A stretch of DNA of 64,000 nucleotides from Escherichia phage vB_EcoM-fFiEco06: sequence record NC_054914.1, one strand, 5' to 3'. The notes below the pieces were generated by a model, which had not been told where the DNA came from, ran no database searches, and saw nothing but the letters and a program-made list of their open reading frames with translations. The translations under genes were made by a program, and so were the position numbers. Positions 3,162 to 46,494 of this stretch are shown piece after piece. How positions within the stretch are numbered: position 1 is the stretch's first letter; each line of letters begins with the position of its first letter.

Positions 3162-3338
3162 TTATACTCCGGATAGTTTGTAAACTATTTCAACATCGCC
3201 TTTTGCTGCTTTATAACCTTCAGCCCAAGATACAACCGAGTTTTTATCCGAAGATTCAAATTCTGGCATTGGGCTTTCGCCAATGTTCACGCAGTATGTT
3301 TCTTCATTTTCGTCGAACCAAATAATTAAAGTAGTCAT
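3162..3338 (-). CDS. small hypothetical protein (58 aa), absent from ORF track
   Basis: ATG 3336-3338 preceded by GGAGAAA SD; MTTLIIWFDENEETYCVNIGESPMPEF...; fills an otherwise empty gap. Confidence 0.4.
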   Translation of the reverse strand: MTTLIIWFDENEETYCVNIGESPMPEFESSDKNSVVSWAEGYKAAKGDVEIVYKLSGV

Positions 3339-3407: not shown

Positions 3408-3676
3408 TTATTTCATATTATTGAAATATTCTTCTGCGATTTCATCGTTATCATGGTAAACTTTAGAAGACAGTTTAACATAACCTTCAGCAGTGAACAT
3501 GTTAATCACAACCTTTACAGTATACCACTGACCATCTTCATTACCCATTACTGCATAGGTTTCAAACATCGGATGGTCAGGACCGATAACTTTAATATCA
3601 TTCACTGTACGACCGAAATCTTCTGAAACACATTTCATAAAGAAGTTGAACAGTTCGCCGTAATTATCCATTTCAT
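3408..3676 (-). CDS. hypothetical protein
   Basis: Track ORF starts at TTG 3683; ATG at 3674-3676 with GGAG SD gives MDNYGELF... Confidence 0.5.
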
Positions 3677-3713
3677 TCTCCAAGTTGTTTTTGTATCAGT
3701 AGTTGATAGTTGT

Positions 3714-3743
3714 ATAGTACCATGGAAGAACAGGGATGTAAAC
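3714..3743 (-). promoter_or_regulatory. putative sigma70-type early promoter (-35 GTTTAC, 18-nt spacer, extended -10 TGGTACTAT)
   Basis: Minus-strand reading ...AAAACTGTTTAC-(18)-TACTAT; same architecture recurs at 4 other sites. Confidence 0.4.
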
Positions 3744-3877
3744 AGTTTTGTGAAAAAATTTTTTAAAAAGTTTTAGGGAATTCTAGGGCAGGGAGGGGCA
3801 ATTAAAAGATAGGATAATATATTATAAAGGGTAGAAACTAAATGATGTCTAGAGAGGCCCGGAAAGGCCTAGATACC

Positions 3878-3904
3878 AAAAAGCCCCAACCTTTTGGTCG
3901 GGGC
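3878..3904 (-). terminator. rho-independent terminator
   Basis: Minus RNA GCCCCGACC-AAAA-GGUUGGGGC followed by UUUUU; downstream of ORF 3913..4386. Confidence 0.6.
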
Positions 3905-3912
3905 TAAGAATG

Positions 3913-4386
3913 TTATTTGATTTGTTTAGCAGACCAAATGCGGTCTTTAATAATTTTTTGGATGTCTTCAACATACTCAAGAGAGTGAACATGTGGGTTA
4001 TCTTTGAAACTATAAGCACGAGCTAGCTTTTGGCCTTCAGTTTTGATTACTAAAAGCTCTTTAAGGATAGCTTCATATTTGGAGATAATTCCTTTAACAA
4101 TATTTTTCTCTTGTGTGACTTTAGGATCTGCTTTAGGAGCAGGTTTACCTGAAGCCTTTGCAAAAGCAGCTCCAGTAGCAACTAAACTTTTCCAAGCCAT
4201 ACTAACTGCATTCCCTGTAAATCCTTCGGCTTTCATATCACGAGCAAATTGGAATCGTGATTCATCGGAAGCATCTTTATAGGAATATTTACCCGCGGCA
4301 ATGGCAGCTTTTGCAACAGCTTGAATTTCAGTGCTAGATGCTTCATTTAACACCGCTTCATTTAAAAATTGAGTATATGATTTCAT
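3913..4386 (-). CDS. hypothetical protein with capsid-targeting-sequence-like N-terminus (candidate internal protein)
   Basis: 157 aa; N-terminus MKSYTQFLNE-A resembles the MKTYQEFIAE CTS with an L-x-E motif; AGGAAA SD; late-promoter motif upstream. Confidence 0.6.
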   Translation of the reverse strand: MKSYTQFLNEAVLNEASSTEIQAVAKAAIAAGKYSYKDASDESRFQFARDMKAEGFTGNAVSMAWKSLVATGAAFAKASGKPAPKADPKVTQEKNIVKGIISKYEAILKELLVIKTEGQKLARAYSFKDNPHVHSLEYVEDIQKIIKDRIWSAKQIK

Positions 4387-4422
4387 CTTATTTCCTGTTT
4401 TAATTCGGGGTTTTAATATACT

Positions 4423-4430
4423 TATTTATA
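4423..4430 (-). promoter_or_regulatory. late promoter motif TATAAATA
   Basis: Exact TATAAATA on minus strand about 40 nt upstream of ATG 4386. Confidence 0.4.
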
Positions 4431-4432
4431 CT

Positions 4433-4459
4433 AAAAAGCCCCAACCTTTCGGTCGGGGC
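4433..4459 (-). terminator. rho-independent terminator downstream of the tRNA/stable-RNA transcription unit
   Basis: Minus RNA GCCCCGACC-GAAA-GGUUGGGGC followed by UUUUU. Confidence 0.6.
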
Positions 4460-4511
4460 TAAGCCTTGCGGCAACCTTGTCGGGGTTCCACCTGCTAAGG
4501 CAAGTGTTTGT

Positions 4512-4776
4512 ACGAAACGCCGGGATTCGAACCCGGTTATTAAGCAGTTGACGCTACTCAATATTTTTAAAAGGCCATATCTCGACCATATCCGAACGTT
4601 CCGTCAAAAACGCTACTCGGCTTACGGCAAAGATATTTCCTCGAATCGATAATTCGGTGCGCCGTTTCTGCTGTGATATAAGGGGACATTAACAAAACAT
4701 AAAGATTTATTAATACCAGTCCTTAAACAGGGAACATCAGTCCGACGACTTGCCGGTAGCGACCCGGCTTCTTGTC
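4512..4776 (-). ncRNA. stable small RNA region (T4 RNA C / RNA D-like), including an RNA with a tRNA-like T-arm and acceptor stem
   Basis: No ORF; CCGGGTTCGAATCCCGG T-arm-like element at 4522-4538 (rc) flanked by pairing GAAACG/CGUUUC; position between tRNA-Arg and terminator as in T4; boundaries approximate. Confidence 0.4.
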
Positions 4777-4853
4777 TGGTCGAGGCAGTAGGGATCGAAC
4801 CTACGACCCAGGACTTAGAAGGTCCTTGCTCTTCCTTCTGAGCTATGCCTCGT
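4777..4853 (-). tRNA. tRNA-Arg (anticodon UCU)
   Basis: Cloverleaf folded by hand: acceptor CGAGGCA/UGCCUCG, anticodon loop CUUCUAA, T-loop GGTTCGATC, 3' CCA encoded. Confidence 0.85.
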
Positions 4854-4856
4854 ATT

Positions 4857-4931
4857 TGGCGGACGTGATAGGATTCGAACCTATAACCAATCGCTTAACA
4901 GGCGATCGCTCTGCCATTGAGCTACACATCC
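4857..4931 (-). tRNA. tRNA-Asn (anticodon GUU)
   Basis: Acceptor GGAUGUG/CACGUCC, D-stem GCUC/GAGC, anticodon stem AUCGC/GCGAU, loop CUGUUAA, T-arm AUAGG-TTCGAAT-CCUAU, CCA encoded. Confidence 0.8.
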
Positions 4932-4935
4932 AAAT

Positions 4936-5022
4936 TGGTGGGGAGTGGTGGAGTCGAACCACCCGAGTCGCAATGACAATGAATTTACAGTCCACACCGC
5001 TACCTCTACGGGATAACTCCCC
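4936..5022 (-). tRNA. tRNA-Tyr (anticodon GUA), type II with long variable arm
   Basis: Acceptor GGGGAGU/ACUCCCC, anticodon loop CUGUAAA, long variable arm, T-arm GGUGG-TTCGACT-CCACC, CCA encoded. Confidence 0.75.
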
Positions 5023-5031
5023 AAATTAATT

Positions 5032-5106
5032 TGGTGGCCCTGGGTGGAATTGAACCACCATCTGGCGATTATGAGTCGCTTGCTTGAACCTTCCAGCTAC
5101 AGGGCC
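5032..5106 (-). tRNA. tRNA with genomic anticodon CAU (T4 tRNA-Ile homolog by position; Met also possible)
   Basis: Acceptor GGCCCUG/CAGGGCC, anticodon loop CUCAUAA, T-arm GGUGG-TTCAATT-CCACC, CCA encoded; sits next to tRNA-Thr as T4 tRNA-Ile does. Confidence 0.75.
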
Positions 5107-5107
5107 T

Positions 5108-5183
5108 TGGTGCTGATTGACGGAATCGAACCGCCGACCTTCTCATTACAAGTGAGTTGCTCTACCTACTGAGCTAAATCAGC
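5108..5183 (-). tRNA. tRNA-Thr (anticodon UGU)
   Basis: Acceptor GCUGAUU/AAUCAGC, D-stem GCUC/GAGC, anticodon loop CUUGUAA, CCA encoded. Confidence 0.85.
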
Positions 5184-5188
5184 AAAAC

Positions 5189-5278
5189 TGGCGGAGGCGA
5201 TAGGATTTGAACCTATGAGTCGCCGGAGCGACTGCCGGTTTTCAAGACCGGTGCATTAAACCACTCTGCCACGCCTCC
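5189..5278 (-). tRNA. tRNA-Ser (anticodon UGA), type II
   Basis: Acceptor GGAGGCG/CGCCUCC, anticodon stem CCGGU/ACCGG, loop CUUGAAA, long variable arm, CCA encoded. Confidence 0.8.
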
Positions 5279-5280
5279 AG

Positions 5281-5354
5281 TCTCCGTGGCAGGATTTGAA
5301 CCTACGACATTCTGCTCCCAAAGCAGACGCTCTACCAAACTGAGCTACACGGAG
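5281..5354 (-). tRNA. tRNA-Pro (anticodon UGG)
   Basis: Acceptor CUCCGUG/CACGGAG, anticodon loop UUUGGGA, T-arm GUAGG-TTCAAAT-CCUGC; CCA not encoded. Confidence 0.85.
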
Positions 5355-5364
5355 TAAATTAAAT

Positions 5365-5438
<74 letters not shown>

Positions 5439-5443
5439 AAATT

Positions 5444-5530
5444 TGGTGCGAGAAGTGGGACTCGAACCCACAAGGAAATCATTCCGCAGCATTTTAAGTG
5501 CTGTGCCTTTACCAATTTGGCCATTCTCGC
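5444..5530 (-). tRNA. tRNA-Leu (anticodon UAA), type II
   Basis: Acceptor GCGAGAA/UUCUCGC, anticodon stem CAGCA/UGCUG, loop CUUAAAA, long variable arm, CCA encoded. Confidence 0.85.
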
Positions 5531-5531
5531 G

Positions 5532-5603
5532 CTGGGAATAAAGGACTCGAACCTTTGCATCCTGGAATCAAAATCCAGTGCCTTACCAACTTGGCTAATT
5601 CCC
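5532..5603 (-). tRNA. tRNA-Gln (anticodon UUG)
   Basis: Acceptor UGGGAAU/AUUCCCA, anticodon stem CUGGA/UCCAG, loop UUUUGAU, T-arm AAAGG-TTCGAGT-CCUUU; CCA not encoded. Confidence 0.85.
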
Positions 5604-5640
5604 AATTATTAACAAAGGCTCTTAAGCAAGAACCCTTGAT
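5604..5640 (-). promoter_or_regulatory. possible middle-type promoter (MotA-box-like TTGCTTAA plus TAATAAT) abutting tRNA-Gln 5' end
   Basis: Minus-strand CTTGCTTAAGAGCCTTTGTTAATAATTGGGAAT; spacing fits TGCTT box about -30 and -10 just before the tRNA 5' end; speculative. Confidence 0.25.
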
Positions 5641-6592: not shown

Positions 6593-6633
6593 TAGATAGG
6601 GTAATAGTATCACTACCCTATCTAAAAGTAAAC
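6593..6633 (-). promoter_or_regulatory. early promoter embedded in 11-bp perfect inverted repeat (-35 GTTTAC, extended -10 TGATACTAT)
   Basis: TAGATAGGGTA-loop-TACCCTATCTA hairpin 6593-6624 contains the -10; GTTTAC 18 nt upstream (6628-6633). Confidence 0.45.
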
Positions 6634-6867
6634 TTATTTTTTACGAAAAATTGATTTATTTTCTGCTGCCCATTTTTCAATAACTGCAGCAGGACCAGTA
6701 ACAACAATTTTATCACCGTAATCTTCTGCGGCGAGTTGACCGAAATTATCTAATGCATCACGAAGAACTCCATGAGGCATTTCACCCATTTTATCTTTCT
6801 TGCCAGTGTAAATAAACTCAACTTTTACATCAGCAGTTTCAGCAATAAATTCTTGGTAAGTTTTCAT
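6634..6867 (-). CDS. internal protein (IP) family member with capsid targeting sequence
   Basis: N-terminus MKTYQEFIAE-T is the T4 IP capsid targeting sequence (gp21 site after L/I-x-E); start taken at second ATG (6865-6867) with GGAAA SD; track start 6879. Confidence 0.65.
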   Translation of the reverse strand: MKTYQEFIAETADVKVEFIYTGKKDKMGEMPHGVLRDALDNFGQLAAEDYGDKIVVTGPAAVIEKWAAENKSIFRKK

Positions 6868-6893
6868 TTTGATTTCCATTTGGTTTTGTTTTG

Positions 6894-6931
6894 ATAGGGT
6901 AATAGTATCACAACTAAAACCCTATGTAAAC
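6894..6931 (-). promoter_or_regulatory. early promoter with degenerate hairpin (-35 GTTTAC, extended -10 TGTGATACTAT)
   Basis: Same GTTTAC-(18)-TACTAT spacing; followed by identical 30-mer gtaaacaactttgtgaaattattttaaatc also present at 7257-7286. Confidence 0.45.
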
Positions 6932-6943
6932 AACTTTGTGAAA

Positions 6944-7201
6944 TTATTTTAAATCTTCTAATCGTTTCTTCATCTTAGAGCCATTTTTAGCAATTTCTCC
7001 TGCATCGGAGCATAATGCTAAAAGTGCTTTAACTTTAGTTTGGTCTCCTTTAAAAGATGAAGGATCGACCGCAGCAGCAAGTTCTTTAATACGAGAGAAA
7101 AGACGCTCAGCTTCAGCTAAAGCCATTCCAAGCTTTACTTCCATACCGTGGGAAGATTCAGTGATAGTAGTTTTTGTAGCAAACTCTTTGAAAGTTTTCA
7201 T
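6944..7201 (-). CDS. internal-protein-like ORF with CTS-like N-terminus
   Basis: 85 aa; N-terminus MKTFKEFATKTTITE; AGGAAAA SD; lies in the ip locus next to 57B. Confidence 0.6.
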   Translation of the reverse strand: MKTFKEFATKTTITESSHGMEVKLGMALAEAERLFSRIKELAAAVDPSSFKGDQTKVKALLALCSDAGEIAKNGSKMKKRLEDLK

Positions 7202-7222: not shown

Positions 7223-7262
7223 TGATGAGGTAATAGTATCACTACCTCATCAGTATGTAAAC
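7223..7262 (-). promoter_or_regulatory. early promoter embedded in 10-bp perfect inverted repeat
   Basis: TGATGAGGTA-ATAGTATCAC-TACCTCATCA hairpin 7223-7252; loop identical to 6604-6613 but stem sequence differs with full compensation; GTTTAC at 7257-7262. Confidence 0.45.
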
Positions 7263-7274
7263 AACTTTGTGAAA

Positions 7275-7959
<685 letters not shown>

Positions 7960-46263: not shown

Positions 46264-46494
46264 ATGTTACTAGAATTTAAACAATTTCTTTATGAAGCTT
46301 CTATTGATGAATTTATGGGTAAAATTGCCTCTTGTCAAACATTAGAAGGTTTAGAAGAACTTGAAGCTTATTATAAGAAAAGAGTTAAAGAAACTGAATT
46401 AAAAGATACTGATGACATCTCAGTCAGAGATGCTTTGGCAGGAAAAAGAGCTGAATTAGAAGATTCAGACGATGAAGTAGAAGAAAGCTTTTAA
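46264..46494 (+). CDS. uvsW.1: UvsW.1
   Basis: Track TTG start 46252; ATG 46264 with GGAGAAAAAG SD gives 76 aa, the T4 UvsW.1 length. Confidence 0.8.
   Translation: MLLEFKQFLYEASIDEFMGKIASCQTLEGLEELEAYYKKRVKETELKDTDDISVRDALAGKRAELEDSDDEVEESF

Follow-up and report, generated by a model that had tools for sequence, protein, structure and literature searches.

A tag-bearing late gene between e.8 and rnaC of a Tequatrovirus as a candidate internal head protein gene

Gene Content and Expression Signals of the Locus

The DNA considered here is a stretch of 64,000 nucleotides (the window) from Escherichia phage vB_EcoM-fFiEco06 (NC_054914.1), and its subject is an open reading frame (ORF) of 157 amino acids, located between the homologues of the T4 loci e.8 and rnaC, whose first ten residues resemble the capsid targeting sequence (CTS) of the T4 internal proteins (IPs). 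Comparison of the ORFs with the T4 annotation places the window on the T4 map segment that extends from nudE across the tRNA cluster to ipI, 57B/57A and genes 1, 3, 2, 4, 53 and 5. Escherichia phage vB_EcoM-fHoEco02 and several others match positions 3600-4700 at 100% identity, both window ends run on exactly into the fHoEco02 record, and the phage is a Tequatrovirus.

An initial annotation, made from the letters alone, had singled out this ORF for its CTS-like start, its AGGAAA Shine-Dalgarno sequence, an exact late promoter upstream and two near-identical flanking terminators, and all of these were recovered on the minus strand at the positions given in Table 1. Both terminator stems are made of 10 pairs (7 of them G-C) closed by a 4-nt loop and followed by a T-run; the copies differ at one loop base, with folding energies of -20.3 kcal/mol (z -3.85) upstream and -19.5 kcal/mol (z -4.3) downstream. 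The late motif TATAAATA occurs in 25 exact copies in the window against 9.9 +/- 3.2 in shuffled sequences, an enrichment expected of T4 late promoters, and the copy that precedes the 157-aa ORF stands, as in T4 late transcription units, a short way upstream of the gene at the -10 position. No sigma-70-like site was found in the window between the upstream terminator and the ATG of the ORF. The 157-aa ORF is an insulated, late-only transcription unit, which fits a protein required while proheads are built.

A comparable arrangement is found in other phages. Klebsiella phage KpV477 (Jiaodavirus) has its homologue directly downstream of the tRNA cluster, in the same position as in the window. An unrelated terminator hairpin stands ahead of this gene, followed by TTTTTAG and, some 40 nt upstream of the ATG, an exact copy of TATAAATA; another terminator follows the gene. 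The UFV13 homologue has the window's upstream layout (terminator, TTTTTAG, TATAAATA), and the JK45 homologue carries AATAAATA instead of TATAAATA.

Table 1. Coordinates of the 157-aa ORF, its signals and predicted protein segments, and the two ip-locus ORFs of the window.
Feature	Position	Strand	Remarks
157-aa ORF, candidate internal protein	3913..4386	-	starts MKSYTQFLNEAVLNEASS; stop codon 3913-3915; PHROG 2280, unknown function
Shine-Dalgarno sequence AGGAAA	4391..4396	-	4 nt ahead of the ATG at 4386; read from the sequence
T4-type late promoter, exact TATAAATA	4423..4430	-	begins 2 nt past the terminator T-run; ends 36 nt before the ATG
Upstream intrinsic terminator	4437..4460	-	closes the tRNA/rnaC transcription unit; left-hand copy of the cassette repeat
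Downstream intrinsic terminator	3882..3905	-	second repeat copy; right-hand end of the cassette
CTS-like propeptide MKSYTQFLNE, codons 1-10	4357..4386	-	predicted gp21 cleavage after Glu10 (L-N-E↓A)
Second L-N-E↓A site, AVLNE, codons 11-15	4342..4356	-	imperfect 15-nt tandem duplication
Predicted three-helix N-terminal domain, residues 16-75	4162..4341	-	GKYSYKD...SRFQFARDMKAEGF...AWKS; helices 18-30, 41-53, 59-71; predicted local distance difference test (pLDDT) 81-90
Lys/Pro/Ala-rich linker AKASGKPAPKADPKV, residues 76-90	4117..4161	-	predicted disordered; pLDDT 56 at residues 81-90
Predicted C-terminal helical hairpin, residues 91-157	3916..4116	-	fold search: generic helical-hairpin matches only
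ip-locus ORF, MKTYQEFIAE...	6634..6867	-	PHROG 'internal virion protein'
ip-locus ORF, MKTFKEFATKTTITE...	6944..7201	-	PHROG 'internal head protein'

The N-Terminal Tag

In T4, amber-suppression mutagenesis of IPIII indicates that residues 4 and 7 mainly control targeting and residues 8 and 10 processing, and the first 10 residues of IPIII suffice for packaging foreign proteins (Black laboratory review, PMC9026906). The match to the IP targeting sequence proposed in the initial annotation is borne out at all four of these mapped positions, as MKSYTQFLNE contains the targeting determinants Tyr4 and Phe7 together with Leu8 and Glu10; homologues keep Tyr or Phe at position 4 and Phe at position 7. 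Two cleavage sites are predicted for the prohead protease gp21, L8-N9-E10↓A11 and L13-N14-E15↓A16, and in homologues the residue after FL-x-E is mostly A, G or S. The duplication behind the second site (TTTTTAAATGAAGCG / GTGTTAAATGAAGCA) is identical at 12 of 15 nucleotides; shorter homologous alleles lack this site, where alignment A1 shows an indel of 4-5 residues.

Does this likeness go beyond what any start codon might offer? Residues 2-10 of the ATG-initiated frames of at least 50 amino acids in the window (n = 491) were scored with BLOSUM62 against the T4 sequence MKTYQEFIAE. The 157-aa ORF reached 25 (z 4.3) and tied for second place, the other two of the top three being the ip-locus ORFs of the window, and the next unrelated frame scored 15: the N-terminal resemblance to the T4 CTS exceeds chance. 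Two regular expressions describing the tag matched 2 of 493 window frames, the 157-aa ORF and the 77-aa Ip, and in a genome-wide set of 1305 frames (the window plus three pieces of the near-identical fHoEco02) the pattern ^MK[ST][YF]..F was found in four, namely the two ip-locus ORFs, the 157-aa ORF and a homologue of T4 61.1. A loosened expression also matched an internal ATG of gene 2.

Homologues with as little as 40% identity retain the tag, with starts such as MKSYAQFLNE, MKTYNEFLNE, MKSYAEFLTE, MLEYSEFLKE, MKFKEFLAE and MLKFNEFLAE (the last in P0015, described below), while the spacer that joins the tag to the core in alignment A1 (ASSSDV.AAA..A..AGKYSYKD..ESRFQFARDMKAEGF) varies by whole-codon indels.

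Two other tag-like starts deserve description in their own right. The 61.1 homologue (fHoEco02 HE2_033, L009:18556-18720, minus strand, outside the window) is a 54-aa protein of PHROG 1823 (unknown function) encoded in the early gene 61 operon; its start, MKTYKEFIKED, scores 37 and is nearer the T4 CTS than the tag of the 157-aa ORF. Either it too is a packaged protein that has gone unrecognised, or the motif is not confined to head proteins. UvsW.1 (window 46264-46494, plus strand, PHROG 1143) directly follows the UvsW helicase gene and starts MLLEFKQFLYEAS, with F..FL.EA fitting the loose pattern only; its tag likeness is probably a coincidence, and limits the trust to be placed in the motif by itself. 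An assignment of that frame to the prohead core protein gp67 was discarded in view of its place right after UvsW and its match to PHROG 1143.

The Protein and Its Homologues

The predicted mature protein has a mass of 15.5-16 kDa and an isoelectric point (pI) of 9.5-9.6, close to those of T4 IPI (9.02), IPII (9.56) and IPIII (9.65), and is thus small and basic in the manner of T-even internal proteins. Its AlphaFold model is all-helical with a mean pLDDT of 75, and residues 4-15, which fall below 50, precede a helical domain modelled with confidence, a pattern expected of a propeptide.

A homologue was detected by tblastn in 510 phage records (Escherichia, Shigella, Yersinia, Salmonella and Citrobacter phages, and 38 Klebsiella phages), full-length in most of them, across Tequatrovirus, Mosigvirus-like, Jiaodavirus and Yersinia phages. 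Protein searches recovered full-length relatives down to 40-49% identity, and one more full-length homologue, P0015, came from an exhaustive HMMER search against 1.84 billion representatives; four long repetitive matches from the HMMER search (P0017-P0020) were rejected as spurious, as they align through a repeated 'AAGSYSYKAF'-like motif. Residues 16-75 are the sole part common to the Klebsiella and Yersinia phage homologues, whose C-terminal domain differs. Searches of the 157-aa protein against Pfam, NCBIfam and PDB sequences returned no matches. The family is annotated as hypothetical in all 60 records sampled. Of the names read, that of one UniRef entry, for the homologue of Klebsiella phage KPKp, is 'Internal head protein', and the rest are 'hypothetical'. 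The 157-aa ORF is a real, conserved gene.

Short versions also exist (P0006, P0008, P0014, P0025; L008:9229-9231), which end just past the Lys/Pro linker, at about 4100-4112 (minus strand) on the window, and consist of the tag and N-terminal domain only. The out-of-frame tails of P0006 and P0014 start near a GAGAAAAAT run, and KpV477 has an in-frame TAA. Such versions could reflect true dispensability, modularity at the level of domains, or sequencing errors; taken at face value, shortened alleles imply that phages can do without the gene, at least under laboratory conditions.

A Variable Slot between e.8 and rnaC

T4 has no gene between e.8 and rnaC, and a single copy of the window's terminator stands there, flanked on its rnaC side by the sequence that borders the upstream copy in the window and on its e.8 side by the one that borders the downstream copy. 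Because the T4 flanks match the outer ones, positions 3906-4436 (late promoter, ORF and one terminator copy) amount to a clean indel bounded by direct repeats of about 30 nt. T2 also lacks the gene and has a T4-type junction. Among 60 evenly spaced records matching the T4 junction, seven are uninterrupted (two T4 records, T2, VEc74, F2, BP32 and N2) and about 20, including RB51, carry the window-type insertion of about 556 bp.

In RB14 and RB69 the slot is occupied by a different gene, a 187-aa ORF (RB14ncORF136c, split into ORF148c/149c in RB69) that starts MKTYAEFLTE↓AAKLPSE and is present in 165 records. It resembles the window ORF in its position, the kind of tag, its similar size, a pI of 9.5, its hypothetical status and its assignment to PHROG 2280, but it has an unrelated body, a different downstream terminator of its own, and upstream GATAAATA rather than an exact TATAAATA. 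The joint assignment to PHROG 2280 had made true homology of the two proteins a candidate explanation, which was discarded since BLASTP aligns residues 1-11 only and hhalign residues 1-10 only. PHROG 2280 scores both slot proteins at E <1e-50 despite this tag-only alignment, and appears to be a composite joined by the tag and by mosaic members. In UFV13, ES21 and KarlGJung both ORFs stand in tandem, with the shared terminator at each junction.

A common tag, unrelated bodies and variable occupancy form the pattern by which ip loci are recognised. Judged from its sequences, the e.8-rnaC slot is probably a third polymorphic ip locus, for which an earlier mention in the ip-locus survey of Repoila et al. 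1994 is possible. Its cassettes would be gained, lost and stacked through recombination at the shared terminator.

Such recombination at a shared regulatory hairpin recalls the PeSL mobile regulatory cassettes of T4-type phages (early promoter plus stem-loop), reportedly described by Arbiol and colleagues in 2010. The element itself is different here, as the repeat at the junctions of the 157-aa cassette is an intrinsic terminator that is followed by a late promoter.

Classical ip Loci and Neighbouring Genes

As the initial annotation had stated, the 157-aa ORF lies across the tRNA cluster from the ip locus: a cluster of 10 tRNA genes (4777-5604, minus strand), among them tRNA-Asn and tRNA-Tyr, separates it from the two ip-locus ORFs. 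The T4 cluster has 8 tRNAs, and the homing endonuclease gene segB that interrupts it is missing in the window. Between the cassette and tRNA-Arg, at about 4461-4770 (minus strand), lie homologues of rnaC and rnaD (the T4 species 1 and 2 stable RNAs), the rnaD-like part departing from T4 more than the rnaC-like part; Rfam contains no family for either RNA, and a scan against it reported tRNAs only.

For the first ip-locus ORF, the mechanical call (6634-6879, minus strand) begins at an upstream ATG (MEIKMKTYQEF...), and the tag together with the PHROG match (residues 5-81) indicates that the ATG at 6867 is the true start. The promoters of the two ip-locus genes are nearly identical (TTTACA-17-TACTAT with TG) and lie inside a stem-loop module (6902-6945, 7233-7275). 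Upstream of e.8 and of each ip-locus gene lie near-identical early-promoter modules of the form aatttcacaaagttgTTTACA...gtgaTACTATtacc that contain an inverted repeat (3714-3742, 6902-6945 and 7233-7275, minus strand; also 6600-6632), and we take them to be PeSL-like shuffling junctions of those loci.

At the other classical slot, between denV and e, T4 has ipII and ipIII, whereas RB14 and ASO78A have Ip4. This slot is empty in fHoEco02, where denV is followed directly by e (L010:13641-13701, just left of the window start). The phage would thus have three tag-bearing proteins that may be head cargo, the two small ones of the ip locus and the larger basic 157-aa protein, with the 61.1 homologue as a question mark. 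ASO78A carries Ip4 and the 157-aa ORF together, so the two are not mutually exclusive. The same hyperplastic region shows another allelic replacement, in which T4 e.7 has given way to a 58-aa ORF (3162-3338, minus strand) of the RB14ncORF134c/RB69ORF145c type.

Proposed Role and Alternative Explanations

How does the 157-aa protein compare with internal proteins of established function? Work from 2025 established that each of the three T4 internal proteins specifically inhibits a different GmrSD type IV restriction enzyme, Ip1 acting on GmrSD-CT596, Ip2 on GmrSD-ECOR21 and Ip3 on GmrSD-ECOR17, with only the leader sequence in common (PMC12373910). Bas37_0260, an ipI-locus protein with the same motif, inhibits McrBC (bioRxiv 10.1101/2025.11.20.689424).

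The window ORF shares with T4 IPI-III a CTS with Tyr or Phe at position 4, Phe7, Ile or Leu at position 8 and Glu10, the L/I-x-E↓A context for cleavage, a mature product that is small and basic, dispensability of the gene, and a variable region in which neighbouring alleles have only the tag in common. It differs from them in the lack of any sequence or fold similarity past residues 1-10, in its e.8-rnaC location, and in having a late promoter only. Ip4 and Ip5 (RB14, T2, T6 and other T-evens) and the window's own ip-locus ORFs are, like it, CTS-bearing accessory ORFs known by the tag alone, but they occupy classical ip loci and carry PHROGs labels of internal head or virion proteins; the window's ip-locus ORFs are, moreover, preceded by early-promoter/stem-loop modules, and the 157-aa ORF by a terminator and a late promoter. 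Bas37_0260 offers a further parallel as a non-T4 Ip-type protein recognised by its N-terminal motif, with a demonstrated target, although it belongs to a different locus and is likened here by the description of its motif.

Taken together, these features suggest that the 157-aa ORF probably encodes a new Ip-type internal head protein of a T-even phage, in agreement with the initial proposal of an extra capsid-packaged protein, whose sequence-testable parts (tag, cleavage sites, basic protein, late promoter and slot) all held. The gene would be transcribed late only, from its own TATAAATA promoter, with terminators insulating both sides. The 10-residue tag, through Tyr4 and Phe7, would dock the protein on the prohead scaffolding core, and gp21 would then remove it by cutting after Glu10 and/or Glu15 (L-N-E↓A), leaving predicted mature N-termini of AVLNEASSTEIQAVAK from Ala11 or ASSTEIQAVAK from Ala16. 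The basic product of about 15.5-16 kDa would reside within the packaged DNA and be ejected into the cell together with it. By analogy with the known internal proteins, packaging, cleavage and injection appear likely. An anti-restriction role, which the initial annotation gave only as an example (a factor like IPI) and which draws on the same analogy, is more tentative: once in the cell, the protein might most plausibly act as a specific inhibitor of a host defence against incoming modified DNA, and, given that Ip1-3 block GmrSD variants and the Bas37 protein blocks McrBC, a type IV restriction enzyme is the leading guess for its target, albeit one that we hold with limited confidence. No sequence or fold likeness of the 157-aa protein to known injected type IV restriction inhibitors was found.

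Several observations weigh against an internal head protein. MKSYTQFLNE differs from MKTYQEFIAE at five of ten positions (S3, T5, Q6, L8 and N9), and position 6 is Gln in the window allele and Glu in most homologues. The strict expression also matches the 61.1 homologue (MKTYKEFIKED, L009), and the looser one UvsW.1 (MLLEFKQFLYEA, window 46264..46494), neither of which is a known head protein, so that the motif alone is no proof. Both ip-locus genes follow early-type promoters and the 157-aa ORF only a late one. Fold searches with the 157-aa protein gave no hint of function and no known fold relatives, and shortened alleles occur (P0006, P0008, P0014, KpV477). Neither virion proteomics nor cleavage data nor a phenotype of the 157-aa protein turned up in a literature search, and none of the proteomics terms looked for occurs in the fPS-65/fPS-90 paper (PMC7917993). 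The ORF also lies outside the denV-e and 57B-tRNA.4 loci, the functional study of Ip1-3 speaking of 'two Ip loci' (PMC12373910); this location concerns place, and not mechanism.

Among packaged fates, the main alternative is that the tag indeed brings the protein into the head, where it would serve as a bulk basic protein with a structural or charge-balancing role, organising DNA in place of the missing IPII, IPIII or Ip4. In the matching reference genome the denV-e slot is empty, which leaves only the two small ip-locus proteins and the 157-aa protein; the mature protein is basic and Lys-rich with its KPAPKADPK linker, lysines of T4 internal proteins touch DNA phosphates in heads (PMC3012670), and the N-terminal domain is conserved across genera (40-58% identity) above what is usual for arms-race ip genes. 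Such a role nevertheless seems unlikely, as T4 heads can be assembled when any single internal protein is missing and each of the three has a specific restriction target (PMC12373910), T4 and T2 manage without the 157-aa gene, and the joint presence of Ip4 and the 157-aa ORF in ASO78A argues against strict complementarity.

Alternatively, the product may be a late cytoplasmic accessory protein that is never packaged, its tag being left over from recombination with ip genes or an amphipathic start that arose by convergence. The CTS-like starts of proteins not known from heads (the 61.1 homologue and, more loosely, UvsW.1) are in keeping with this idea, as are the position of the ORF outside the two recognised ip loci (PMC12373910) and the fact that its packaging is deduced from sequence. 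We give this explanation little weight, however: homologues whose identity has fallen to 40% and whose C-terminal domain has been exchanged still carry the tag, an unrelated protein in the same slot bears the same tag, and a late protein with Tyr4, Phe7, Leu8 and Glu10 should be hard to exclude from proheads, considering that the first 10 residues of IPIII package foreign proteins (PMC9026906). A non-functional frame, whether arisen by chance or a decaying intergenic remnant, might account for the truncated or frameshifted versions in several records (P0006, P0008, P0014, P0025) and the in-frame stop of KpV477, but is very improbable and effectively refuted by conservation, given full-length homologues in most of 510 records and several phage genera, indels in whole codons, a dedicated Shine-Dalgarno sequence, promoter and terminator, and the mean pLDDT of 75.

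The preferred reading of the ORF as an internal head protein gene can be extended to the locus as a whole, in a form that we consider speculative and rather doubtful: the e.8-rnaC interval may be an unrecognised third ip locus with at least two unrelated late capsid-targeted families in terminator-bounded cassettes, each encoding an injected inhibitor of a host defence without a known counter (for example an unassigned GmrSD or type IV variant), and it may have been overlooked because the slot is empty in T4 and T2.

Significance

T-even internal proteins are themselves already known, and what is new here is the location and the family. The 157-aa family (about 510 records) and its 187-aa slot-mate (165) are annotated as hypothetical almost everywhere, and surveys of 'two Ip loci' miss both, as they lie outside those loci. 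The variant tag MK(S/T)Y.(E/Q)FL.E broadens the sequence space of the CTS, a device for loading cargo into T4 heads; in practical terms the gain is modest, since the principle was known before. The 157-aa ORF is present in many therapeutic and typing phages and absent from T4 and T2, which provides a natural gain-of-function contrast. As Ip1-3 and the Bas37 protein inhibit type IV enzymes, each new tag-bearing protein is a ready candidate for a new pair of defence and counter-defence, and the main value of the 157-aa gene would lie in offering a directly testable anti-defence candidate, together with evidence for a third ip locus in T-even phages.

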